The translations under genes were made by a program, and so were the position numbers. A stretch of 34,664 nucleotides of DNA from an uncultured bacterium (lineage in GTDB: Bacteria; Patescibacteriota; Minisyncoccia; UBA6257; 2-01-FULL-56-20). Below, in pieces: positions 4,631-28,892 of the stretch (positions within the stretch are counted from its first letter, which is position 1; every line of letters begins with the position of its first letter). The notes under the pieces were generated by a model. It saw only the letters and a program-made list of their open reading frames with translations, ran no database searches and was not told the DNA's origin. The stretch lies in NCBI GenBank assembly GCA_963844965.1, contig CAWJQC010000003.1, positions 1 through 34,664 on the forward strand, written 5' to 3'.

Positions 4631-4662
4631 AATTAACGACATCGCAAGTCGTTAATTTTTTT
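4631..4662 (+). terminator. Rho-independent terminator hairpin (aattaacgac / atcgcaa / gtcgttaatt) followed by a T7 run. It belongs to the TTAACGACATCGYAAGTCGTTAA palindrome family.
   Basis: Perfect 10-bp stem plus T-run directly after the TAA at 4625-4627. Confidence 0.6.
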
Positions 4663-4716
4663 ATAAGACCTATAGGTCCTATACGACTTATACGACCTAT
4701 AGGTCTTATAGGTCTT
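4663..4716. repeat. Tandem 8-9 bp units TATAGGTC / TATACGAC / TATAAGAC (array 1 of 5 around the 4HB gene).
   Basis: Direct reading: ataagacc tataggtcc tatacgac ttatacgac ctataggtc ttataggtc. Confidence 0.8.
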
Positions 4717-5479
4717 GTTTCTTTTTCTTCTCCCTCGCTTCTTTCAGAATTTTTTCTATCATCTCGTCGGTTTCTTTCTCAGCTTCTTTTTCTTTCGTCA
4801 AAATTTTCCTCAGCTTCTGTTCCCGCGGTTCGAAAATCGCGCCGTTTGCTTCATGCTCCGCTCTCACTGCTCTTATCTGCATGTCCAGAAGATAATTGGT
4901 TTGGTTGATAAGACAGATAAGGCAGTTTGCCGCCTCTTCGGGATTTTCAAGATAGGTCTTATAGGTCGTATAGGACTTATCAATCCTATCAATCCTATCA
5001 GTCCTATCAGTCCTATCAATCCTATCAGTCCTATCAGTCCTATCCGTCCTATCCGTCCTATCCGTCTTATAAACCAATTGCCGAACCGCAAGCGCCCTCG
5101 GGTTGTCCTTCTTCCAGATTTGGAAATTCCGCTGGCGCAGAAAATCGGAGTAATCTTCCAGCAGTTCTTCAAAGGAAGCCCGCGCGACGCCGAGAAGAAA
5201 AATTTCGGTTTTCGGCGAGTTCTTTCCGGCGGCTGCGCCCTCTACGATGTTTTGTTTTCCTGAACGTGCCGCCTGCATCATCTGGTCGCTTTGGCGCGTA
5301 AAATGATAAGTCGTATAGGTCTTATATGTCCTATCCGACCTATCCGTCTCATCGGTCTTATCCGACTTATCGAACCCGGACCCGCGGGGTTCAACGTACC
5401 GGCGGCAAAACTCCGCGGTCATGTCGCAAATTACGGTTGCCTGTTCGTAGGATTTCAAATTTTTGTAAGTGGGCGGCAT
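4706..5479 (-). CDS. Four-helix-bundle protein (PF05635-like, '23S rRNA intervening sequence protein' family) carrying two in-frame tandem-repeat insertions.
   Basis: The core reads 'QMMQAARSGKQNIVEGAAAGKNSPKTEIFLLGVARASFEELLEDY' and matches the 4HB motif 'QL.RS..S...NI.EG..R.S..EF..FL.IA.GS..E'. A 9-bp repeat GTCCTATCA x10 is translated in frame as TDRTDRTDR. Start is placed at Met33 (5479) because upstream codons lie inside a repeat array. Confidence 0.5.
   Translation of the reverse strand: MPPTYKNLKSYEQATVICDMTAEFCRRYVEPRGSGFDKSDKTDETDRSDRTYKTYTTYHFTRQSDQMMQAARSGKQNIVEGAAAGKNSPKTEIFLLGVARASFEELLEDYSDFLRQRNFQIWKKDNPRALAVRQLVYKTDRTDRTDRTDRTDRIDRTDRTDRIDRIDKSYTTYKTYLENPEEAANCLICLINQTNYLLDMQIRAVRAEHEANGAIFEPREQKLRKILTKEKEAEKETDEMIEKILKEAREKKKKQDL
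4953..5073. repeat. Tandem array of about 13 units of 9 bp (GTCCTATCA / GTCCTATCC / ATCCTATCA) plus TATAGGTC units, inside the 4HB ORF.
   Basis: Seen directly. Period 9, so the reading frame is preserved. Confidence 0.85.
5306..5376. repeat. Tandem 8-9 bp units (TATAGGTC / CTATCCGAC family), array 3, inside the 4HB ORF.
   Basis: Seen directly. Confidence 0.75.
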
Positions 5480-5500
5480 CGTTTCGGTTTTGGTTTTTTT

Positions 5501-5561
5501 ATGCGTCCCATGCGTCTTATAGGTCCTATAAGACCTATACGTCTTATAAGTCGTATAGTAG
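5501..5561. repeat. Tandem 8-9 bp units (ATGCGTCC / TATAGGTC / TATAAGAC), array 4.
   Basis: Seen directly. Confidence 0.75.
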
Positions 5562-5606
5562 ACCCGCCGGTACAACTTATCAACATCTCCAAAAACAACG
5601 GAGCAG

Positions 5607-9002: not shown

Positions 9003-9236
9003 CAAAGTCAAAATTCAAAAGGCAAAAGTCAAAAGTTAAAGTAAAAAATCAAAAATGAAATACTTTTTACATTTGACATGCAATTTTGACCTTTGAGTTT
9101 TAACTTTTGACATTATCTGAGCTGACTTTTGATTTTTGCCTTTTGACCCCGAGCCCTGCGTACTGAAACAAGAACGCGACGACTTTTGACATTTGACCTA
9201 TACTTTTGACTTTTGAATTTTGCCTTTTGACCTTAA
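9003..9236. repeat. Inverted arrays of the 8-mer GTCAAAAG / CTTTTGAC. There are about 6 units on the + arm (9003-9060) and about 10 on the - arm (9066-9236).
   Basis: Seen directly. A large imperfect palindrome centred near 9062, with no gene inside. Confidence 0.75.
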
Positions 9237-9674: not shown

Positions 9675-10349
9675 GTGAACAAAACAACGGGCAGAATAAA
9701 AGAAATTGCGCGGAACAAAAAGGCAAAAATCGGGCTCTTAATCTGCGCCGTGATTGCGGCAATATTATCCGGCTACCTCATAGTCAAAGCTCTCTCGTTT
9801 GTTGATAATTTCACCACCACCAATTACGTGTCAAGCGTGTGGCACACGCAAGTGGCGACTTCTTCGGGCGTTGCCGAATTGCAGGCGAAAACTTGCAATA
9901 CTATTTCCACCTCAACCTGGTTTTGCTCCGCCACTTCCACCTCCATATGTTTGAACGACCTTGGCGACGGCGACTACATTATAGTTGCCCAAGCCGATAG
10001 CGGCCACCTGGCGTGGAAAAATGACGATACTGCCTGCTCTCGGCCGCAATGCGAGCAAGACGGCCCAGTGGACGGAAACAATCTGGTTGCCGACAACACG
10101 GTAAATTTCAGCGATTACGCGGCGCGGGCTGCCTGCCAAGCGATTGGCGGCCGTTTGCCGACGCGAAACGAATTGGGGTGCTTGTACAACAACTCATCAA
10201 CGTTCGGCGGTAACTTTGCTGCGGACTTCTACTGGTCTTCTGCCGAGGACGATGCCGCGGACGCCTACTACGTGTATTTCGCGAATGGCGGCGTGAGCAG
10301 CTACGGCAAGACCTACGCCTACTACGTCCGCTGCGTCCAAGGGTGGTAA
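9675..10349 (+). CDS. DGR target protein. It has an N-terminal membrane anchor, a Cys-rich region and a C-terminal DUF1566/FGE-like (C-type-lectin fold) domain that carries the variable repeat.
   Basis: GTG start. The C-terminus reads '...LPTRNELGCLYNN...FAADFYWSSAEDDAADAYYVYFANGGVSSYGKTYAYYVRCVQGW*', the classic DUF1566-type ending. Its last 128 nt align to the TR with A-only mismatches. Confidence 0.8.
   Translation: MNKTTGRIKEIARNKKAKIGLLICAVIAAILSGYLIVKALSFVDNFTTTNYVSSVWHTQVATSSGVAELQAKTCNTISTSTWFCSATSTSICLNDLGDGDYIIVAQADSGHLAWKNDDTACSRPQCEQDGPVDGNNLVADNTVNFSDYAARAACQAIGGRLPTRNELGCLYNNSSTFGGNFAADFYWSSAEDDAADAYYVYFANGGVSSYGKTYAYYVRCVQGW
10215..10342 (+). other. DGR variable repeat (VR).
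   Basis: 128 nt, colinear with the TR at 11061-11188 with no indels. There are 14 mismatches, all at positions where the TR has A (TR AAC codons read as TTC, GAC, TAC, AGC or GGC in the VR). A shared GC-rich 3' end 'cgtccgctgcgtccaagg' could be the IMH (initiation of mutagenic homing) element. Confidence 0.85.
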
Positions 10350-10392
10350 GATTTGGAATTTGGGCATTTGAGGATTTGTGGATTGGGTTGTA

Positions 10393-10460
10393 GTTGGTAG
10401 CTTGTAGCTGGTAGGTAGTAGGGAATTCCTACAAGCTAAAAAGCTACAAGCTAAAAAGCT
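10393..10460. repeat. Hairpin-forming repeat (GTAGCTTGTAGCTGGTAGG ... CTACAAGCTAAAAAGCTACAAGCTAAAAAG) on the left flank of the 4HB gene.
   Basis: 'agcttgtag' and 'ctacaagct' are reverse complements around gaattc. A similar copy sits on the right flank. Confidence 0.7.
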
Positions 10461-10462
10461 GA

Positions 10463-10825
10463 ATGAAAATAAATTCATATACAGACCTGATTGTTTGGCA
10501 AAAAGCAGTTGATTTAGTTGTGGAAGTTTATAATCTGACTGAGAAATTTTCCAAAAGCGAACTTTTTGGTCTAACTTCACAAATGAGACGGGCAGCAGTT
10601 TCTATTCCGTCTAATATTGCCGAGGGCAGGAGGAGAGGAACAAGAAAAGATTTTTGCCATTTTTTGGTTATCGCTTTTGGTTCAGGAGGAGAATTGGAAA
10701 CCCAAATAATAATTGCCAAGAAACTAAACTTTATAAAAATAGGCGAGTATTCAAAGGTCGATTTGTTATTAGACGAGGTTATGCGCATATTGAACGTCAT
10801 GATTCATAACCTGCAGGTTCATTAG
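10463..10825 (+). CDS. Four-helix-bundle protein (PF05635 / '23S rRNA IVS protein' family).
   Basis: 'DLIVWQKAVDLVVEVYNLTEKFSKSELFGLTSQMRRAAVSIPSNIAEG...ELETQIIIAKKL' is a near-consensus member. Confidence 0.8.
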   Translation: MKINSYTDLIVWQKAVDLVVEVYNLTEKFSKSELFGLTSQMRRAAVSIPSNIAEGRRRGTRKDFCHFLVIAFGSGGELETQIIIAKKLNFIKIGEYSKVDLLLDEVMRILNVMIHNLQVH

Positions 10826-10885
10826 CTGGTAGGTCGTAGCCTGTAGGAATTTACAAGCTAAAAAGCTACTAGCTACAAACTAATT
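10826..10885. repeat. Right-flank copy of the GGTAGG...CTACAAGCTAAAAAGCTAC hairpin repeat.
   Basis: ctggtaggtcgtagcctgtaggaatttacaagctaaaaagctactagctacaaac. Confidence 0.7.
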
Positions 10886-11060
10886 CGGCCGGAGTCTTTA
10901 ATCACGCAGCGGCTCAAGCCGCGCGGGTTAAAGAGAGTTTGCTGATATAAACCACGATTTCGCCGCCCCGTTAGGGAGCTGTGAATGTTGGGCTAAACTA
11001 ACAGGGCATTGTTGGCAAGCAGCTGTTTTACGGCTGCTGAGACAGTCCAGCGCGAAATAT

Positions 11061-11188
11061 TTTGCTGCGGACAACTACTGGTCTTCTGCCGAGAACGATG
11101 CCGCGAACGCCTACAACGTGAATTTCACGAATGGCGGCGTGAACAACAACAACAAGACCAACGCCAACTACGTCCGCTGCGTCCAAGG
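11061..11188 (+). other. DGR template repeat (TR).
   Basis: AAC-rich (reads as AADNYWSSAENDAANAYNVNFTNGGVNNNNKTNANYVRCVQG*). Every difference from the VR is at a TR adenine. Confidence 0.85.
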
Positions 11189-11227
11189 TTGATTTATAAA
11201 AGCGAAAATCGCCGATATTTCAAAAAA

Positions 11228-11584
11228 ATGCGCAACACCGAGCGATTGCCTCTTTATCACAAGACATACGGACTAATCAAGCATTTATACGGCGTGATCA
11301 GGAGCTTTCCCAAGGAATATAAATATTCTATGGGGAGCGAAATCATGAATCTTTCGTGGAAATGCCTTGACCTTATTATTGAAGCGAACGCCTACCCCAA
11401 TGCTCAAAAGAGCGTGAAAGTCGCCGAATTAAGCGCGGCATACGATAAATTAAAAATGCGGCTGCGGATGAGCCAGGAAATCAACCTGACATCAGCCGGC
11501 CAATTCGCTCATCTTGAAGAAAATTACATGCTGGAAATAGGGAAAATGATTGGCGGCTGGAAAAAATGGGCGGGGGCAGAATAA
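11228..11584 (+). CDS. avd: Avd (DGR accessory variability determinant).
   Basis: About 118 aa, placed between TR and RT. It matches the bAvd pattern (Y..L..L..V.R.FPK.YKY..G..I....W.CLDLII.A...K.......LS...D.L...LR......I......H.E...LEIGKMIGGWKK) and has the C-terminal GGW motif. Confidence 0.7.
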   Translation: MRNTERLPLYHKTYGLIKHLYGVIRSFPKEYKYSMGSEIMNLSWKCLDLIIEANAYPNAQKSVKVAELSAAYDKLKMRLRMSQEINLTSAGQFAHLEENYMLEIGKMIGGWKKWAGAE

Positions 11585-11620
11585 ATTTCTAATTTCTAAT
11601 TGACCTAATTGATTTAAATA
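11584..11620. repeat. Left inverted-repeat arm (aatttctaatttctaattgacctaatt...) of a MITE-like element.
   Basis: Its reverse complement recurs at 11863-11900. The same family, without cargo, is at 28797-28887. Confidence 0.65.
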
Positions 11621-11833
11621 ATGTTCAATTCCAAAATCCCAAACAAAGATAAATATGATTTGGAAGAAAGAACCGCAAAATTCGGCGAAGAAGTTATCAG
11701 ATTTTGCCAAGAATTGCCCCAAAATGAAATAACCAGACCGATAATAAATCAGCTGATAAAATGCGCAAAATTATGGGTTGAAGCCAAAGAGTTAAATCTG
11801 ATTTTCAACGCAATCAACAATAAATTGAAATGA
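11621..11833 (+). CDS. Truncated 4HB-family gene fragment (N-terminal two-thirds only).
   Basis: 'YDLEERTAKFGEEVIRFCQELPQNEITRPIINQLI' matches the 'FDLEERL..FA..II.L...LPK......I..QL.RS' N-terminus of 4HB proteins. It lacks the C-terminal helices. Confidence 0.4.
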   Translation: MFNSKIPNKDKYDLEERTAKFGEEVIRFCQELPQNEITRPIINQLIKCAKLWVEAKELNLIFNAINNKLK

Positions 11834-11862
11834 CGCTTTTGGTTATTGGGATTTAGGATTTA

Positions 11863-11900
11863 TTTAGGTCAATTAGAGCAATTAGAATAATTAGAAATTA
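11863..11900. repeat. Right inverted-repeat arm (tttaggtcaattagagcaattagaataattagaaatta).
   Basis: Its reverse complement matches the left arm at 11584-11620. Confidence 0.65.
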
Positions 11901-11903
11901 CCC

Positions 11904-13040
11904 ATGGCCATCTTCACCTATGAAAACCTGTATCGCGCGTATCTTGACTGCCGGCGCAATAAAAGAAAAACGATTAACGCGCTGAAATTTGAGATTGATT
12001 TAGAAAAGAATTTGTCTTTACTGCTTGAAGAATTAACGAGCCGTCGATACCAGCCAGGCCGCTCGATTTGTTCGTGGTCAAATATCCCCAGCCGCGGGAA
12101 ATATTCGCGGCTGATTTCCGCGACAGGATAGTGCACCATCTGCTGGTCGGCCAAATTCTGGCCGAAAGCGAAAAAAGCTTTTTTTACAACAGTTTCGCTT
12201 GCCGCAAAGGAAAAGGTACGCACAAGGCGGTCGGACTTTTGAGAAGATACCTGAAAAGCGCTTCCAGAAGCGGAAAAGAGAAAATATTTTACCTGCAATT
12301 GGATATCGGAAGTTTTTTCGTGTCAATCCGGCACCGCGTTTTATTTTCCATTTTCAGCGAATTTGTCGGCAAATTGAACCGGACCGAAGAATGGAAACAA
12401 GAAATTTTATGGCTGGCTGAAAAAATCATTTTTTACGAACCAGCCAAAAATTGCGAAATAAGAGGCGATAAGAGCTTGCTCGCGCTGATACCGCCGCACA
12501 AGTCGCTTTTTAACGCGCCGCCAGAACGGACTGCCGATTGGCAATTACACCTCGCAATTTTTCGCCAATATGTATCTGAACCGATTGGATTATTTCACCA
12601 AGCAGACGCTTAAGGAAAAATTTTATATCAGATATGTTGACGACATTGTGATTTTAGGAAAAAGCGCCGGCGCGCTTAAAGGTCTGATTCCCGAAATTAA
12701 CAGGTTTTTGAAAAAAGAATTGGAGATTGAACTGAATCTTGACAAGATCAAGTTCAAAAACGTTTCGGCGGGCATAGATTTTCTGGGCTATTTTGTGAAG
12801 CCGGATTACACGCTTGTCCGCCGCCGGGTGGTTAAGAATTGCAAGGAAAAAATCCGCCCTGCCCCCGAAGTTTCGAAAAAATTGGTCTCGCAAGCCAATT
12901 CTTATCTGGGGCATTTTATCCACGCCGCGAGCTACGGATTGAGAAAAATGATTTCAGAGAGGTTAATCAAAGCGGACAATTCTATACATTTTAGCAATGG
13001 CTATAAATCGATATTCGCAATAATTGGCGGGCAAAGAAAA
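11904..13040 (+). CDS. DGR-type reverse transcriptase. It is frameshifted (frame 0, then +2 near 12065, then back to 0 near 12520) and read through in frame into the downstream surface-protein gene.
   Basis: It carries these DGR-RT motifs:
- 'YQPGRSI / FVVKYPQPREIFAADFRDRIVHHLL'
- 'SFACRKGKGTHKAV'
- 'IFYLQLDIGSFF'
- 'GLPIGNYTSQFFANMYLNRLDYF' (found in frame 0)
- 'YIRYVDDIVILG' (the YxDD box)
- C-terminal 'SQANSYLGHFIHAASYGLRKMI'. Confidence 0.8.
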
Positions 13041-14983: not shown

Positions 14984-15036
14984 TTAACGACATCGTAAGT
15001 CATTAATTAATAATTAACGATGTCGTAAGTCGTTAA
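14984..15036. repeat. Two REP-like palindromes (TTAACGACATCGTAAGTCATTAA and TTAACGATGTCGTAAGTCGTTAA) between convergent genes.
   Basis: Seen directly. They are the same family as the hairpin at 4631-4657 and the palindrome at 15752-15774. Confidence 0.75.
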
Positions 15037-15722
15037 TCGAGCGAAACGTTTTTGACCTCTTCTATTTCAATATCCTTAAGCCACTGTTTTATATTTTTTT
15101 CGTATTCCGCGGGGCCGCCGAAAAATTTCATAAGAAATTCTCTATTAGTAACCGACGGAAAATTTTTCTTGCCGAGATAATCAAGGTGGCTTGACCAGCG
15201 GTAATTATCCAAGAATTTCATCGCTTCTCTATGGTTCTTGATCTCGCGTTCGCGCCATTCCGGCGCCGCGAGGTCCAGCGGGTTCACGTGTATGTAATAG
15301 GGGATATGGTTGAAATGCGATTCGTTCTTTATCACCATGGATTTGTACCTGCCTTCAAATAACGTCCCCTTCCTTTCGTATTTCTGATTGAAATATTTTG
15401 CGTATCCCACGTTGATTTTTTTCATAAACGCCGTGATAGCTCCATCCGTGCGCGGGGAAAGAAGGAGATGATAGTGGTTGGGCATTAGACAAAACGCGTA
15501 TATATCAACCAAGAGTTTTCTTGGTTCTCTTGGCTTTGATTTGCCGCCAATATAACGACTTGCGACATCGTTAGATTGGTTGAATCTATAAAAAGCGTTA
15601 TTTACCCTGTTTTGGTCGTTAAATTCAAAAAGATCGTGGATAAACCTCAAATAATCCTGTTTATCAAGGAAGATTTTGCGTTTATCCACGCCCCTGTTCA
15701 GTGTGTGGTAGACATCAGCCAT
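15033..15722 (-). CDS. REP-associated tyrosine transposase (RAYT), a Y1 HUH transposase of the IS200 type.
   Basis: HuH motif 'CLMPNHYHLLL', then 'GAITAFMKKINVGYAKYFNQKYERKGTLFEGRYKS', then 'YYIHVNPL'. REP-like palindromes flank it on both sides. Confidence 0.7.
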   Translation of the reverse strand: MADVYHTLNRGVDKRKIFLDKQDYLRFIHDLFEFNDQNRVNNAFYRFNQSNDVASRYIGGKSKPREPRKLLVDIYAFCLMPNHYHLLLSPRTDGAITAFMKKINVGYAKYFNQKYERKGTLFEGRYKSMVIKNESHFNHIPYYIHVNPLDLAAPEWREREIKNHREAMKFLDNYRWSSHLDYLGKKNFPSVTNREFLMKFFGGPAEYEKNIKQWLKDIEIEEVKNVSLD

Positions 15723-15751: not shown

Positions 15752-15774
15752 CTAACGATGTCGCAAGTCGTTAA
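15752..15774. repeat. REP-like palindrome CTAACGATGTCGCAAGTCGTTAA upstream of the RAYT gene.
   Basis: Seen directly. Confidence 0.7.
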
Positions 15775-18146: not shown

Positions 18147-18167
18147 TTTGTTAGTTTTTTGTTTTTT

Positions 18168-18237
18168 ATTAACGAGTTAACGAGTTAACGGGTTTTTTGT
18201 TATTTTTATAACTCGTTAACCCTTTAACTCGTTAACT
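18168..18237. repeat. GTTAAC-based palindromic repeats (TTAACGAGTTAACGAGTTAACGGG ... AACTCGTTAACCCTTTAACTCGTTAAC).
   Basis: Inverted copies that could form a terminator-like hairpin. The family recurs at 20720-20888, 21541-21612, 23915-23975 and 27419-27500. Confidence 0.7.
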
Positions 18238-18355: not shown

Positions 18356-19330
18356 ATGAAATTGCGAAATAAAACTTTTTTGCCGTCGCTCGTCGCATTT
18401 GCGCCAGCTTTTTCTATTTTCTATTTTCTATTTTCTATTTTCTACCCGGTATACGCGGACAATAGCGTCAACGTCAGCACGACATTTGTTTTGGCTCCGA
18501 CAACGATCGTTCTCACCCAAAACTCGTACAGATGGTATGACAATATAGATGCCCTGACCCCCAGTAATCCGCTTACCGCTGGGGAAAGTTCTCCGACCTC
18601 AACGCCGGCAGGCGGGACAGTCCTGCGTTTGCGGATGAACATAGTGGACAGCGGCCTTGGCATTGGCGCCGGAGCAACCTTCAAGCTTCAATACGCGAAT
18701 TCCACATCTGGAAGCTGGACCGATATCAGCACGTCCACCGCTTGGGTTCTTTACGATAATCCCTCGGTTGCCGATGGGCAGGTAATAGTCACGACAGTTT
18801 TGGCTAGTTCTAACATGGGGGAAAGTTACTGTGAGTCAAATCCGACTGCGGCAATGCCAAGCCCGATACTCCAGGGGCAAAGCGGGGAGTGGGATTGGGT
18901 GGTCGCCAATAATTACGCCGACACGGCGAGCAACTGGTTTTTCCGGATGGTCTATTCTTCAAGCACGGAGCTTGATAACTATTCTGGCTATCCGGAATTA
19001 ACCGCGGTGGTGCCTCCATCCCCGCCGACGCCGCCCGCTCCGTCCGGCGGAGGGGGCGGGGGAGTAGTGGGCGTGGGGGCTGGTCAAACATTGTTGCCAA
19101 GCCAGCCCGCGACCACGACGCCGTACCTGCCGATTCCGCCGCCCTTCGTCCCGCCCGCAATGCAGTGCATTGACTATAACGGCGACAACCGCGTTGACAT
19201 GATTGACCTATCCATTCTGCTCTATCATTACGGCGAAACCGGCCCGGATATCGGCTGTTTTGATTTGAATCACGACGGCATTGTGGATTTCCCGGATATT
19301 TCCATTCTGATGTATTATTGGACTTCGTAA
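18356..19330 (+). CDS. Secreted protein with a jelly-roll-like central domain, a Pro/Gly-rich linker and a C-terminal dockerin-like domain of 2 EF-hand-like repeats.
   Basis: Signal peptide. Dockerin pattern 'CIDYNGDNRVDMIDLSILLYHYG...CFDLNHDGIVDFPDISILMYYW'. The central domain (RLRMNIV...FKLQYANSTSGSW...NWFFRMV) is homologous to the protein encoded at 3-480 of this window. Confidence 0.55.
   Translation: MKLRNKTFLPSLVAFAPAFSIFYFLFSIFYPVYADNSVNVSTTFVLAPTTIVLTQNSYRWYDNIDALTPSNPLTAGESSPTSTPAGGTVLRLRMNIVDSGLGIGAGATFKLQYANSTSGSWTDISTSTAWVLYDNPSVADGQVIVTTVLASSNMGESYCESNPTAAMPSPILQGQSGEWDWVVANNYADTASNWFFRMVYSSSTELDNYSGYPELTAVVPPSPPTPPAPSGGGGGGVVGVGAGQTLLPSQPATTTPYLPIPPPFVPPAMQCIDYNGDNRVDMIDLSILLYHYGETGPDIGCFDLNHDGIVDFPDISILMYYWTS
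18410..18444 (+). repeat. Heptanucleotide repeat TTTTCTA x5 inside the signal-peptide coding region.
   Basis: Seen directly. It encodes FSIFYFLFSIFY. A 7-bp unit is not a multiple of 3. Confidence 0.85.
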
Positions 19331-19332
19331 TA

Positions 19333-19393
19333 ATCCGCTAATCAACGCTAACAAACATAATCCGCTAATAGACGCTAATCATAAGACGCTAAT
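19333..19393. repeat. About 5 units of CGCTAAT(C/A)A immediately upstream of the GxxExxY gene.
   Basis: Seen directly. Confidence 0.65.
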
Positions 19394-19807
19394 ATGAAAA
19401 AAATTATAGAAGATCTAATTTATAAAGATTTGTCTTTCAAAATACATGGCGCGGCTATTGAAGTGCGTAGGGATTTTGGAGCAGGGCATAAAGAGAAGTT
19501 ATACCAACAGGCTCTTGCCGCAGAATTAGACAGGCGCGGTATAAAATTTGAAAGAGAGAAAGCCATCAAAATTTATTCGCCAAAAGATGGCAAGTTTGTC
19601 GGCCTCTATCGGCCAGATTTTGTCGTGGAAAACAAGATAATTGTTGAAACAAAAGTAGAAACATTTGTGAGACAGGATGAAATAAAAAGAATATATGATT
19701 ATTTGAGGAATAGTGAGTACGAGCTTGCTTATCTGGTCAATTTTGCTTCGCCGCAACTATACGTAAGAAGGATAGTTTATACAAATAAATATAAATCAAA
19801 AATCGGT
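19394..19807 (+). CDS. GxxExxY protein (PD-(D/E)XK nuclease superfamily). It has no stop codon of its own and runs in frame into the next gene.
   Basis: 'DLIYKDLSFKIHGAAIEVRRDFGAGHKEKLYQQAL...YRPDFVVENKIIVETKV...YLVNF' contains G-HK-E-KL-Y, the family signature. It is related to the ORF at 24870-25313. Confidence 0.6.
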
Positions 19808-20695
19808 ATGAAAATTGCAATACTATTCTTGGCGTCTATTGGCTTATTATTAGCGGATATTAGCGGCGTACGGGCCGCTTCGCAGTCGCTTTATTTCTCG
19901 GCGCCTTCGGGAACCATCGCCGTCGGAAGCGAATTTCCGGTCAAAATACTGATCGATTCCGACCAGCCGCTTAACGCCTATGTCGTGACTTTTTCCTACG
20001 ATCCGGGCGTGCTCACGATTGTGGGTTTTGACAACGGCAAGTCAATCATAGATGTTTGGCAGGGGCAGCCGGCCGTTTCCGAAAACGGTTCCGTCGGCTT
20101 GCGCGGCGGCAGCGTCACCCCGTTCAGCGGGAAAGGCGGTAACATCATTACCGTCAATTTCCGGGCGGTGGGAGAAGGAGAGCCGATGCTCGCGTTCGGC
20201 AACTCATCGTTTTATATGGCGAACGGCAAAGGCACGAAAGTTGTTCCGCAAACCGCCGATCTGAAGTTTCAAATTCTTTCGGCCGGCGCCGTCACTTCAA
20301 CACTTCCGGTTTACGAGGAGGCATCGGATATCGCGCCGCCGACCATAAAATATCTGTCTCTCGTCCAGGATCCGTTCAACAGCGGGCAAAAACTTCTGAG
20401 CTTTATGGTTTCGGATCCCGACTCCGGTATCAGGGAGACTCTGGTGCGTACGCGTTCACTCCTCCTCTGGAGCGACTGGATTCCGGCGCAAAACCCGACC
20501 GCGATTCCATTATCCGCCTGGTCCATCGGCTTCAGAGCCATTGATAACAGAGGAAATATTTCGGAAAGAACGCTTTACAACTTTTCGGCGTTTTTGCGTC
20601 CCGAAGCGTTGGGCGTCGCGGCGCTCTTCATTATATTTTTAGTTATCATCGGCTTTATTATAGTAAAGATTAAAAAAGGTCGTTCCGTATCATAG
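19808..20695 (+). CDS. Secreted protein with a cohesin-like N-terminal domain and a C-terminal TM anchor.
   Basis: ATG at 19808 is followed by the signal peptide 'MKIAILFLASIGLLLADISGVRA'. The motif 'AYVVTFSYDPGVLTIVGF' resembles the cohesin 'F.YDP.VL' core. The C-terminus 'LGVAALFIIFLVIIGFIIVKIKK' is a membrane anchor. Confidence 0.45.
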   Translation: MKIAILFLASIGLLLADISGVRAASQSLYFSAPSGTIAVGSEFPVKILIDSDQPLNAYVVTFSYDPGVLTIVGFDNGKSIIDVWQGQPAVSENGSVGLRGGSVTPFSGKGGNIITVNFRAVGEGEPMLAFGNSSFYMANGKGTKVVPQTADLKFQILSAGAVTSTLPVYEEASDIAPPTIKYLSLVQDPFNSGQKLLSFMVSDPDSGIRETLVRTRSLLLWSDWIPAQNPTAIPLSAWSIGFRAIDNRGNISERTLYNFSAFLRPEALGVAALFIIFLVIIGFIIVKIKKGRSVS

Positions 20696-20719: not shown

Positions 20720-20888
20720 GTTAACGAGTTAACTTCTTTTCTTAACCGGTTGGTCGGTTATTGCGGTTAACGAGTTCGCGAGTTAACGAGTTAAAATCCA
20801 AACCCGTTAACTCGTTAACACGTTAACTCGCCAACTACATAACTGTTTGTTCGATAAATTAAACTCGTTAACACGTTAACTCGTTAAT
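20720..20888. repeat. Cluster of GTTAACGAGTTAAC-type palindromic repeats, about 10 units in both orientations.
   Basis: Seen directly. Fills the whole intergenic region upstream of sodA. Confidence 0.75.
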
Positions 20889-20914: not shown

Positions 20915-21538
20915 ATGAAATTCGAATTACCAAAGTTGCCGTACGCATATGACGCGCTTGAGCCATTTATAGATGCGCGAACAATGGAGCTGCACCATGC
21001 CAAACATCATCAGACCTATGTTACCAAGCTAAACGAAGCCATGGCGAAGCATCCCGAACTGGAAACGCCGAGTTTGGAAAAATTGCTTCAGTCGCTGGAT
21101 AGCGTTCCCGCAGATATTCGCACTGCCGTGCGGAATCACGGTGGCGGCCACTATAACCACTCGTTTTTCTGGAGGGTGATGGCGCCGCATTCCGAAAAAA
21201 GCGATAAGCCGCAAAACGGCGGACTTGCCGAAAAAATCGAAAAAACATTCGGCAGCTTCGCAAAATTCAAAGAAACTTTCAGTTCGGCAGCCGCCGGCGT
21301 TTTCGGCAGCGGCTGGGCGTGGCTCGTTTCCGATCCATCGGGTAAATTATCTATCACGACAACGCTGAATCAAGATAGCCCGATCGTGAGCGGCCTCAAG
21401 CCATTGCTTTGTCTTGACGTCTGGGAACACGCCTATTACCTGAAATATCAAAACCGCAGGTCCGAGTACATTGAAGCGTGGTGGAGTGTCGTGAACTGGG
21501 AACAGGTTAATAAGAACCTTAACGAATTAATCGATTAA
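20915..21538 (+). CDS. sodA: Fe/Mn superoxide dismutase.
   Basis: '[29 protein letters not shown]', 'GSGWAWL' and '[15 protein letters not shown]...VVNW' are hallmark SOD motifs. Confidence 0.9.
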
Positions 21539-21540
21539 AG

Positions 21541-21612
21541 AGTTAACGAGTTCACGAGTTAACGGGTTAAAATATCAAACAACTCGTTAACACGTTAATA
21601 AACAACCCGTTA
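21541..21612. repeat. GTTAACGAG palindromic repeats downstream of sodA.
   Basis: agttaacgagttcacgagttaacgggtt ... aactcgttaacacgttaat ... cccgttaattcattaacg. Confidence 0.7.
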
Positions 21613-21683
21613 ATTCATTAACGTGGCCACTTGTTTGGATTGGACAGATTATGGCTTGTTCACAGCAAGAGCGGCGCCCTTAG

Positions 21684-23898: not shown

Positions 23899-23914
23899 CC
23901 GAACTAATTAAAGG

Positions 23915-23975
23915 ATTAACGGATTAACGCATTAACGGATAATAATTCGTTAATTCGCAATTCGTTAATAAGAAA
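23915..23975. repeat. ATTAACGGATTAACGCATTAACGG / TTCGTTAATTCGCAATTCGTTAAT inverted repeats.
   Basis: Seen directly between convergent genes. Confidence 0.65.
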
Positions 23976-23994
23976 TTAGTCAATCCGTGCTGGC

Positions 23995-24855
23995 TTAAAG
24001 TGATTTTGGGCGTCCGCCTTCCTCTTGTATTATTTTGAGCGCAAGTTTACCGTTTTGGATTTCAGCTTCCAGAAGCTTGATTCGTTTCCCGTTTTTCATT
24101 GTCCAAACGCCGGGCTCAGGGTTCAGCGCCCGGATCCTCCTTTCAATTGCCGCAACTTTTTCCGAACTCGCGCCATTCACGGCCTCGTTGAGGTCGCTTT
24201 CGGCGACGAAGGCGTCGGCTGTCGCAAATTTTTTCGTGTATGTCGCTTCCGCCTCATTCTGTGGTCGTGGCTTGATCTCTCCCGCCAGGAATTTTGGCAG
24301 TGTTTCAACCAGCAGGTTGCCACCCAATTCTGCCAGTTTTTCAAGGAGAGTTGGAAATTGGAAATTGGAAATTGGAAATTCCAATTCTCGCTGCGCGAGA
24401 ATTGGCCCATGGTCAACTTTTTCGTCCAAAATATACAACGTGACGCCGGTTTCTTTATCGCCCTCCAGTATGGCGGTTTGGATAGGGGATGAACCGCGGT
24501 GTTTGGGAAGGAGCGACGGATGGACGCCCACCACGCTGCGCGGAAAAGCGGCGATTATTTCCGCGGGGATTATCTTGGCGTAGGCGGCGACAACCGCGAA
24601 GTCCGGTTTGGAAATTGGTAATTGGTAATTGGAAATTGACAAAACTTCCGGCTGCAATATCGGAATGTTATATTTTTGCGCCAAAAGTTTCGTGGGTGGC
24701 GGCGTTATGATTTCCTTCCTCCCGACTGGTCGGTCGGGATTGCAAACCACGGCCGCAGGCGGCATTCCGGCGTCAGTCAGCTTTTGCAAAATTATAGCGG
24801 CAAATTCGGGTGTGCCGAAGAATACGAAATTGGGCTTACGAAAATACGAAATCAT
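23995..24855 (-). CDS. fmt: Methionyl-tRNA formyltransferase.
   Basis: 'FFGTPEFA', 'VVCNPDRPVGRK', 'HPSLLPKHRGSSPIQTAILEGDKETGVTLY' and 'KLAELGGNLL'. The N-terminal 9 aa and two internal 7-aa stretches are encoded by tandem 7-mer arrays. Confidence 0.85.
   Translation of the reverse strand: MISYFRKPNFVFFGTPEFAAIILQKLTDAGMPPAAVVCNPDRPVGRKEIITPPPTKLLAQKYNIPILQPEVLSISNYQLPISKPDFAVVAAYAKIIPAEIIAAFPRSVVGVHPSLLPKHRGSSPIQTAILEGDKETGVTLYILDEKVDHGPILAQRELEFPISNFQFPTLLEKLAELGGNLLVETLPKFLAGEIKPRPQNEAEATYTKKFATADAFVAESDLNEAVNGASSEKVAAIERRIRALNPEPGVWTMKNGKRIKLLEAEIQNGKLALKIIQEEGGRPKSL
24353..24380. repeat. GGAAATT x4 inside fmt.
   Basis: Seen directly. Translated as 'PISNFQFP' on the - strand. Confidence 0.85.
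24610..24637. repeat. GGAAATT-GGTAATT-GGTAATT-GGAAATT inside fmt.
   Basis: Seen directly. Translated as 'SISNYQLPIS'. Confidence 0.85.
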
Positions 24856-24871
24856 ACGAAAGTACGAAACT
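24821..24871. repeat. TACGAAA(A/T/G) x5 array spanning the fmt start and the GxxExxY stop.
   Basis: Seen directly. Confidence 0.8.
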
Positions 24872-25313
24872 AGCGAATGTTGATAATTCTTTTGTATTTC
24901 ACGCCCGACCTCGTGAATCTTGCCAAAATTCCCAATTTTAAACCAGTAGCCTTTAGATAGTTATACAGTTGATCGATGTCACGCTTGTTAAATGTATTGC
25001 CCTGCTTTATTTCCAAAACAATCTTTCCGTCAATCAAAAAATCTAAATAATTTGTGGCGATAAATTTATCGCGATAGCATATTTTTACAGGCAATTCTCG
25101 CTTAAAATTCAGACCCACGCCCTTAAAAGCAACTTCGATTGCTCTTTGATATTGGTTTTCTCTGTAGCCGTAGCCGAGTTGCAAGAAAATATCAAAAAGA
25201 ACCCCAACGATTTGGTAACTTAATTCAGGATATATTAAGTCTGGCTTGTAGACCCTACCCCTTTTCGTATTTTCGTACATTTTCGTATTTTCGTATGTTG
25301 CTTGCTTTGTCAA
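24870..25313 (-). CDS. GxxExxY protein (PD-(D/E)XK superfamily) inserted between def and fmt.
   Basis: 'LSYQIVGVLFDIFLQLGYGYRENQYQRAIEVAF...KIVLEIKQG' contains G-YR-E-NQ-Y. The ORF opens with TTG at 25313, and the first ATG (about 25280) lies inside the TTTCGTA repeat array. Confidence 0.6.
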   Translation of the reverse strand: MTKQATYENTKMYENTKRGRVYKPDLIYPELSYQIVGVLFDIFLQLGYGYRENQYQRAIEVAFKGVGLNFKRELPVKICYRDKFIATNYLDFLIDGKIVLEIKQGNTFNKRDIDQLYNYLKATGLKLGILARFTRSGVKYKRIINIR

Positions 25314-27410: not shown

Positions 27411-27418
27411 GTTGGTTA

Positions 27419-27500
27419 GCGGGTTAACGCGTTTAAAGAGTTAACGAGTTTAGAAATTCACAACCCGTTAACGCATTAACTCGTTAACTATATAATCGGT
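27419..27500. repeat. GGTTAACGCG ... GTTAACGAG ... CCCGTTAACGCATTAACTCGTTAAC palindromic repeats.
   Basis: Seen directly. Confidence 0.7.
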
Positions 27501-28792: not shown

Positions 28793-28796
28793 ATGA

Positions 28797-28887
28797 CTAA
28801 TTTCTAATTGACCTAATTACTCTAATGTTTTTAGAGATTTTGAGGTTGGGATTTATTTGGAAATTAGATATTAGAAATTAGGAATTT
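28797..28887. repeat. Cargo-less copy of the MITE-like inverted-repeat element (ctaatttctaattgacctaatt ... ggaaattagatattagaaattagg).
   Basis: Same arms as at 11584-11620 and 11863-11900. It fills the ctpA-rplI intergenic region. Confidence 0.6.
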
Positions 28888-28892
28888 AAACA

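Follow-up and report, generated by a model that had tools for sequence, protein, structure and literature searches.

A probable intervening-sequence-type cassette carrying a four-helix-bundle gene inserted in a diversity-generating retroelement of a Patescibacteria bacterium

Intervening sequences (IVSs) that encode the four-helix-bundle (4HB) protein S23p were reportedly described by Ralph & McClelland in 1993 from the 23S rRNA of Coxiella burnetii and Leptospira. Here we describe a 4HB gene of the S23p family, together with the repeats that flank it, inside a diversity-generating retroelement (DGR) of a bacterium of the Patescibacteria (candidate phyla radiation, CPR); the stretch analysed, which we call the window, is the whole 34,664-nt contig. 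In the 23S rRNA IVS of Coxiella the S23p open reading frame (ORF) lies in the loop of a stem that is cut by RNase III, tandem heptamers (GACAGAT) stand before the start codon and the ORF undergoes decay; the element was acquired horizontally and then maintained vertically, and S23p IVSs have long been suspected of being mobile (PMC4990558). Genes of the same family (IVP genes) have also been noted within cas operons (PMC3936711) and in rRNA insertions of CPR bacteria (bioRxiv 10.1101/2024.02.27.582315), where, as in our case, they look like intruders between operon genes or in rRNA; unlike our case, the sections of these two sources that deal with the genes mention neither complementary repeat arrays nor empty sites. 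In the literature that we searched, the coverage of which is incomplete, we came across no account of IVP cassettes bracketed by repeats at sites other than rRNA.

Tandem 7-nt repeats in spacers are familiar in their own right, and the cyanobacterial STRR sequences are intergenic heptamer repeats. Direct repeats of the heptamer TAACTGA occupy intergenic regions of Beggiatoaceae, cyanobacteria and Bacteroidetes (PMC4679880). Such repeats resemble the flanks described here in their tandem 7-nt units, in often ending at a start codon and in their patchy phyletic spread, but they are described as direct arrays, and neither a complementary partner array nor an association with 4HB or GxxExxY genes has been reported for them. 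The 23S rRNA IVS is closer. We consider it likely that the feature in the window is an IVS-type cassette, an S23p-family 4HB gene enclosed by complementary arms of ~7-nt repeats and situated outside rRNA in a DGR, because every sequence-level feature of the Coxiella IVS is found here save the rRNA location: a PF05635 cargo, an ORF in the loop of a stem formed by the flanks, heptamers next to the start codon, sense orientation in the host transcript, patchy occurrence among relatives and ORF decay (seen here in a second cassette). The differences are that the rRNA elements sit in helix 25 or 45 of 23S rRNA and this one between the variable repeat (VR) and the leader of the template repeat (TR) of a DGR, that the window cassette has a complete hairpin on each side, and that excision by RNase III has been shown for the rRNA IVS and would here be assumed.

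The cargo gene (Table 1) is intact. Its protein matches PF05635 (23S_rRNA_IVP) over the full length of the model (positions 2-105 of 106, E 8.8e-39, 132 bits) and TIGR02436 (four helix bundle protein, E 4.8e-37), and its closest solved structure is XCC0516 (2GSC, E 7e-22), for which five chains were deposited and which is described as a homopentamer (PMC4990558). The initial annotation had recognised between VR and TR a second 4HB gene distinct from that of Avd, the 4HB accessory protein of DGRs, and the profiles bear this out: beside its PF05635 and TIGR02436 matches the protein reaches 24.5 bits on bAvd (PF22296), where the cut-off is 40, and 24.1 on NF033474, where it is 80. By BLASTP its similarity to the resident Avd is not significant (E 0.24). 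Judged by these comparisons, the cargo protein is a member of the S23p family and distinct from Avd. The two have in common the fold of the 4HB superfamily, a length of ~120 aa and the DGR locus; unlike Avd, the cargo is absent from related DGRs and comes with repeat arms of its own, and the resident Avd is encoded separately. An exact-sequence look-up of the cargo protein returned no record, its protein cluster consists of this contig alone, and its relatives are assigned to Patescibacteria. The wider family is large: S23p-type 4HB genes run to thousands in public sequence, and in one search every one of the 8000 candidates that were scored passed.

Evidence that the gene was inserted comes from four related DGR lineages, which we reached via Avd homologues of 62-68% identity. 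In the window the target gene and avd are 879 nt apart, and avd and the reverse transcriptase (RT) gene 320 nt. In the related loci L083, L086-88 and L089-90 (Avd 63-68% identical) target gene and avd are separated by 449-528 nt that contain no 4HB gene, and avd either directly adjoins the RT gene or overlaps it. The empty site that the initial annotation had proposed to look for in related DGRs is present in five loci (three lineages). A MAFFT alignment of the spacers, collinear on both sides, bounds the extra DNA of the window by the G/T array that follows the VR on the left and by the leader with its GGCCAGA ... ACCACGAT boxes on the right. As read from this alignment, the comparison shows that ~500 bp (roughly 10386-10885) entered the spacer separating the target gene from the leader of the TR once this DGR lineage had diverged from its relatives. 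It supports the view, put forward at the outset, that the gene and its flanks form a discrete inserted module; the module is not part of the DGR. No target-site duplication is recognisable at 10386 or 10885, either in the sequence itself or in the spacer alignment.

The remaining related locus, L084 (Moraniibacteriota, Avd 62% identical), has an insertion of its own between VR and TR at the same spot (L084 5100-5640). This insert holds a pseudogenised 4HB gene of another subtype, and its arms are built of another unit, C/A-rich upstream and G/T-rich downstream. Because it differs from the window cassette in both subtype and arms, we infer that the spacer between target gene and TR has been invaded at least twice independently.

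These loci bear equally on a functional explanation, in which the 4HB gene would be a second DGR accessory, an Avd paralogue working with the RT, and its hairpins cis elements like the post-VR cruciform. The position between VR and TR suits such a role, as does the presence of a 4HB gene at this place in the L084 DGR as well, and Avd and IVP proteins are already known as distant homologues (PMC10053308); weak profile cross-matches are all that we see of this homology here. We nevertheless hold a DGR accessory to be highly improbable. The gene is lacking from the five related DGR loci, it falls far under the Avd cut-offs without significant similarity to the resident Avd, and the copy in L084 is a pseudogene of a different subtype. 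The closest homologues of the cargo, moreover, 70-80% identical to it, sit in non-DGR contexts such as the housekeeping operons rpiB-rpe and mreB-GT4.

The flanks repeat a common plan. Upstream of the gene a G/T-rich arm of heptamers (GTAGTTG GTAGCTT GTAGCTG GTAGGTA, ~10389-10421) is followed by its complement, CTACAAGCTAAAAAG in two copies (~10427-10460), and Tandem Repeats Finder (TRF) reports a period of 7 at 10386-10422 and 10429-10453. The downstream flank is built in the same way, with a G/T-rich arm of 7-nt units (GTAGCTN) and then its complement CTACAAGCTAAAAAG; aligned with each other, 10394-10462 and 10819-10885 have a mean column identity of 81% over ~66 nt. Both flanks contain the exact 18-mer TACAAGCTAAAAAGCTAC, which has 3 matches in the window at up to 3 mismatches against 0.02 expected. 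Because in each copy the G/T-rich arm precedes its own complement, each folds alone: the hairpin of the upstream copy has a predicted energy of -32.0 kcal/mol (z -4.65, 0/200 shuffles as good) and that of the downstream copy -22.4 kcal/mol (z -2.98, 1/200). The initial annotation had thus been right to see direct, hairpin-forming copies on both sides of the gene; its further observation, that 'agcttgtag' and 'ctacaagct' stand as reverse complements within each copy, is correct for the upstream copy and incorrect for the downstream one, which has 'agcctgtag'.

Because each copy is palindromic, the direct copies are also inverted repeats of one another. In the minimum-free-energy structure of 10350-10900 the whole 5' flank is paired with the whole 3' flank and the ORF forms the loop. 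The duplex between the flanks reaches -80.5 kcal/mol against -51.2 +/- 5.0 in shuffles (z -5.9, 0/200), and the stem closes at the stop codon on one side and 2 nt 5' of the ATG on the other. Neither flank contains a promoter-like or terminator-like site, and one weak promoter-like match (9/12) lies inside the ORF at 10713-10740. We considered the flank hairpins as terminators and rejected this, as the flanks have no intrinsic-terminator-like site. The cassette with its inverted arms is present in one copy in the window, and arms of the TAGCTTG type occur nowhere else in it, being confined to this cassette.

A survey of the gene family places this anatomy in a wider frame. One scan of representative genomes gave 80 loci with relatives of the cargo protein (47-65% identity) from CPR, Bacteroidota, Gammaproteobacteria, Clostridia, Acidobacteriota, Planctomycetota and others, and each gene was scored by the best duplex between the 120 nt before its start and the 120 nt after its stop, relative to dinucleotide shuffles, with z below -3 counted as positive. 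Complementary flanks were found at 39/80 of the 4HB genes (49%, median z -2.8) and at 6/148 control ORFs of the same loci (4%, median +0.1). The best period of the upstream arm was 7 in 33 of the 39 positive loci, and the arms can be seen to be tandem arrays; upstream units include GTAGCCA, GGTAATTA, CAGTGGG and GTTGTTGAA, with the complementary units downstream. Neither flank folds on itself in 34 of these 39 loci. The general property is the pairing of the 5' flank with the 3' flank over their full length, not the possession of two separate hairpins. Most of the genes (60/80) are co-oriented with both neighbours, the junctions often being very short; in L082, 16 nt separate the 4HB gene from rpiB on one side and 16 nt from rpe on the other.

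The arms also follow the gene. Arms of the TAGCTTN / CTACAAGCT type surround all five closest members examined, in five unrelated neighbourhoods (the five are the window itself and, with their identities to the cargo protein, L081, 80%; L082, 70%; L221, 71%; and L212, 70%). Over all pairs of loci, the mean number of 7-mers shared by the 80 nt of non-coding upstream sequence rises from 0.53 at protein identities below 45% to 0.67 at 45-55%, 1.52 at 55-65% and 4.73 at 65% or more, and the downstream flanks rise likewise with protein identity. Arms that change in step with the cargo protein and reappear around its nearest homologues in other gene neighbourhoods are part of the cassette, not of the site that hosts it. 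Complementary flanks at about half of the surveyed genes, arms that co-diverge with the cargo and like arms in unrelated neighbourhoods together uphold the suggestion of the initial annotation that 4HB genes travel as small cargo elements.

It could be objected that the flanks are ordinary intergenic repeat hairpins, of heptamer or octamer arrays or like repetitive extragenic palindromic (REP) sequences, and that the 4HB gene has come to lie between two of them by coincidence, with no cassette at all. The contig is indeed full of cargo-less array hairpins, and heptamer repeats have been described from intergenic spacers of other phyla (PMC4679880). A metagenome scan for CTACAAGCT-N(4-12)-CTACAAGCT, which returned 202 matches in 120 loci, likewise placed such TAGCTTG arrays mostly away from this 4HB subfamily, and 17 of the matches are cargo-less hairpins. 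No complementary arm was found 250-900 nt away from these matches, and the ORFs that end at the arrays had nothing in common when their translations were read; the pattern is too unspecific, and therefore unfit, to trace this cassette. Coincidence is nonetheless unlikely in view of the excess of complementary flanks at 4HB genes over controls, the recurrence of one arm type around the nearest homologues, in four further genomes and contexts, the way arm similarity follows protein identity, and the fact that each of the contig's own five small genes for 4HB or GxxExxY proteins is bracketed.

Several results weigh against an IVS-type cassette, and we collect them here. Hairpins on both flanks occur at 0/80 surveyed loci, which makes the window copy atypical; its double-hairpin layout is a local peculiarity on a common theme. 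Arrays of the TAGCTTG type are common in metagenomes, where just 3/202 of the matches adjoin a gene of this 4HB subfamily, and the repeat type is accordingly not exclusive to cassettes. Identical proteins on dozens of contigs have unchanged neighbours (10/10 and 6/6 places), with no direct sign of recent movement; because identical proteins are always at the same locus, movement must be rare. In a test for wobble asymmetry the stem mismatches are not enriched in G:U-compatible changes on the sense strand, comprising 30 G:T and 45 A:C (p = 0.1) beside 89 transversions. We see no sign of RNA-level selection on the stems, judging by these substitutions, and the stems could matter as DNA hairpins or be young. 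Finally, this contig has no rnc gene, and cutting by RNase III is here argued from analogy. The evidence for movement is comparative: empty sites, independent insertions at one site, the same arms in different contexts, and a cargo-less relative elsewhere on the contig.

The double-hairpin layout also invites an explanation by recombination, in which a circle of the gene and one hairpin would recombine into a resident hairpin, as at an integron attC site or in Campbell fashion, and leave direct hairpin copies behind. The arrangement of hairpin, gene and hairpin, with direct copies 81% identical, is exactly the one expected, and metagenomes contain hairpins with this arm type and no cargo. We think this route very unlikely: the 30 ORFs scanned outside the DGR have no integrase or tyrosine recombinase domain, no integron core GTTRRRY is readable at the hairpin ends, and the lack of two-sided hairpins among the 80 homologous loci means that it is not the usual mode.

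As an IVS-type cassette, the element would have neither promoter nor terminator of its own and would be carried along by host transcription. In the transcript its flanks would pair into a duplex of ~70 bp, which RNase III may cut as it does in rRNA IVSs, freeing the host RNA from the insert and so limiting its cost. The 4HB protein would not be a working part of this DGR. The data fit a mode of spread in which rare copying at the DNA level would be followed by long vertical inheritance and by decay into cargo-less hairpins.

Table 1. Positions of the cassette, of the surrounding DGR and of related features in the window
Feature	Position	Strand	Basis
Upstream flank of the cassette	10386..10462	+	TRF period 7; own hairpin; pairs with downstream flank
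Cargo gene, intact 4HB protein of the S23p / 23S_rRNA_IVP family, 120 aa	10463..10825	+	PF05635, TIGR02436
Downstream flank, direct copy of the upstream flank, overlaps the stop codon	10819..10885	+	Alignment, hairpin, duplex
DGR target gene, Lcl_C / C-type-lectin-like C-terminus	9675..10349	+	Pfam Lcl_C E 7e-10
VR	10215-10345	+	Direct repeat with TR, 131 nt, 89% identical
G/T-rich ATTTGRN array, directly 3' of the target stop codon	10350..10388	+	TRF period 8; left edge of the insertion site
DGR leader 5' of TR, boxes GGCCAGA and ACCACGAT	10884..11060	+	MAFFT alignment; right edge of the insertion site
TR	11061..11191	+	131-nt repeat, 89% identity to VR
avd, genuine DGR accessory 4HB gene	11228..11584	+	bAvd 60.6 bits, cut-off 40
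Second cassette, between avd and RT	11585..11903	+	Arms 45-50 nt, TCTAATTGACCTAATT type; fold z -5.07; duplex z -6.8
DGR RT, three frame-shifted pieces	11904..12959	+	RVT_1 matches in two ORFs; tblastn with L083, L089 RTs in frames 3, 2, 3
Array-bracketed 4HB gene with 'suffix domain'	4662..5581	-	TIGR04258, TIGR02436 matches; weak PF05635; duplex z -9.0
RAYT-like Y1 (IS200-type) transposase gene	15033-15722	-	Y1_Tnp E 8.6e-11; NF047646 E 4e-11, below cut-off
Array-bracketed GxxExxY PD-(D/E)XK nuclease	19336..19877	+	TIGR04256 E 6.6e-29; duplex z -6.6
Array-bracketed GxxExxY nuclease, between fmt and def	24837..25296	-	PF13366 (PDDEXK_3) E 3e-26; TIGR04256; duplex z -5.9
Cargo-less hairpin between the S41 peptidase gene and rplI	28793..28890	+	Arms common with second cassette

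The DGR that houses the cassette spans 9675-13000 and consists of a target gene with its VR, the TR, avd and a split RT gene. Each VR/TR mismatch that we inspected in the sequence corresponds to an adenine of the TR, and these adenine-specific differences show past activity of the DGR. A G/T array of the ATTTGRN type follows the VR gene in L083, L084, L086 and L089 as well, that is, in all related DGRs examined, and no complementary partner array was found for it. We considered whether it could be a relic of the left arm of an avd cassette in an ancestor and dropped the idea, there being no complementary CCAAAT-type array downstream of the RT gene in L083 and L084, the relatives checked. Within the leader (10884-10970) the GGCCAGA and ACCACGAT boxes are invariant among related DGRs, and in the consensus fold of four related DGRs the stem between the boxes keeps its pairing through compensatory changes at 10/15 predicted pairs; the leader upstream of the TR has no Rfam match. 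Rfam and tRNA scans of the whole window found no rRNA, tRNA or other Rfam family.

The resident avd scores 67.3 bits on NF033474 (DivGenRetAVD), under the cut-off of 80 for that model, and its orthologues adjoin the RT gene in L083-L090. The RT has lost its stop codon and reads into the next ORF, of 801 aa. Its fragmentation reflects either a decaying DGR or assembly errors.

Beyond the main cassette the contig carries four more, two with 4HB genes and two with GxxExxY nuclease genes, and several cargo-less hairpins, and the inter-flank test is strongly positive for every one of its five small 4HB or GxxExxY genes. Cassettes or remnants occupy roughly a dozen spacers. The second cassette, between avd and the RT gene, contains ORF 11621-11833, an internally deleted 4HB gene that keeps its first and last helices and that over 40 aa matches the N-terminal part of a PF05635 protein of 118 aa from L056 with 63% identity; by the state of this ORF the cassette is decayed. 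The hairpin at 28793-28890 contains an exact 22-mer of the left arm of the second cassette (0 expected) and recognisable segments of its right arm, among them the inner segment, whose partner in the second cassette falls within the 5' end of the ORF. Because that inner segment is retained, the hairpin would be a deletion derivative of such a cassette at a second locus. Both structures begin right where the preceding gene ends, at its TAA stop codon, and have AATAAAT in common.

In the 4HB gene with the 'suffix domain' the 9-nt arrays TATAGGTCT and TATCAGTCC lie in both flanks and also, in frame, within the ORF. The downstream arm of the nuclease cassette at 19336-19877 overlaps the signal-peptide region of the next gene, with no in-frame stop between both genes. 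GxxExxY nucleases appear to be a second type of cargo, a class that rests on the two examples of this contig; no GxxExxY homologue was found in the fetched loci or in viral contigs beyond the window (0 in each).

Cargo-less array hairpins occupy many other spacers of the contig. The octamer TTAACGAG has 24 matches in the window against 0.26 expected, and hairpins of this octamer and its complement, all cargo-less, fill five spacers (18154-18237, 20721-20887, 21535-21621, 23907-23977 and 27416-27487). A gene like those of REP-associated tyrosine transposases (RAYTs) is flanked by REP-like palindromes of the form TTAACGAC-N7-GTCGTTAA (14984-15036 and 15752-15774), with a further copy at 4633-4655 after the Kelch gene, and the palindrome core resembles the octamer unit. 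Modules moved in trans by a hairpin-recognising Y1 transposase (REP-associated, IS200-like), in the manner of REP doublets (REPINs), could draw on this gene and on the core common to its palindromes and the dispersed octamer hairpins. For the cassettes we give such a transposase hardly any credence. TAGCTTG-type arms are unrelated to the palindromes and found nowhere else in the window, and arm units that vary by cassette are not explained by one site-specific transposase. The comparison with REP/REPIN and RAYT systems and with miniature inverted-repeat transposable elements is much the same: short intergenic hairpins, dispersed cargo-less copies and a RAYT-like gene on the contig are common ground, but here the arm unit varies by cassette, the arms of the main cassette are unique in the window and the cargo is not a transposase.

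Other repeats of the contig may be recorded briefly. Just 5' of the DGR, at 9004-9234, arrays of the AAAAGTC type and their complement form a cargo-less structure with an inter-arm z of only -2.0, the first arm being translated as the C-terminal tail of a 1107-aa Kelch-repeat ORF. The array (TTGGAAA)x4 occurs twice within the fmt coding region (24351-24380 and 24608-24638, 100% and 91% matches) and (TTTTCTA)x5 at 18410-18444 (100%), close to where ORF 18356-19330 begins. The region of Kelch-like ORFs at the contig's left end contains 3.2 copies of a 172-nt repeat unit (1080-1618, 73% matches).

The initial annotation had further proposed, as one plausible route, that DGRs recruited Avd from a pool of such 4HB genes. 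Nothing that we tested supports this: in L083 and L084, the relatives checked, avd and the RT gene have no vestigial arms beside them. That cassettes landed twice independently in this family of DGRs shows that such loci are exposed to them. Because the contig carries a dense cassette load, the DGR need not be a preferred target and the landing may be incidental.

The principle that a 4HB gene travels as cargo is not new, being the anatomy of the S23p-encoding 23S rRNA IVS. Two things appear to be new: the setting, within a DGR and away from rRNA, and a family-wide rule of complementary heptamer arrays that co-diverge with the cargo gene. A much broader reading, which we offer as speculation and hold to be doubtful, is that array-bracketed 4HB (S23p) or GxxExxY-nuclease cassettes form a widespread and undescribed mobile class of which the classical 23S rRNA IVSs would be a special case; they would spread by structure- or homology-guided copying into array hairpins, the junction-resolvase-like nuclease supplying the cut and the arms the homology, and repeated landings in DGRs would have led to the domestication of Avd.

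S23p-type 4HB genes occur inside rRNA, cas operons and now DGRs. With IVS anatomy in ordinary intergenic sites and arms that co-diverge with the gene, what was an annotation puzzle becomes a defined and searchable genetic element, datable by its empty sites. For the annotation of DGRs this means that a second 4HB gene in the cassette need not be Avd, and that a long spacer from VR to TR can be an insertion. The origin of Avd itself becomes testable in concrete terms, by asking whether Avd sequences nest among cassette-borne 4HB genes.

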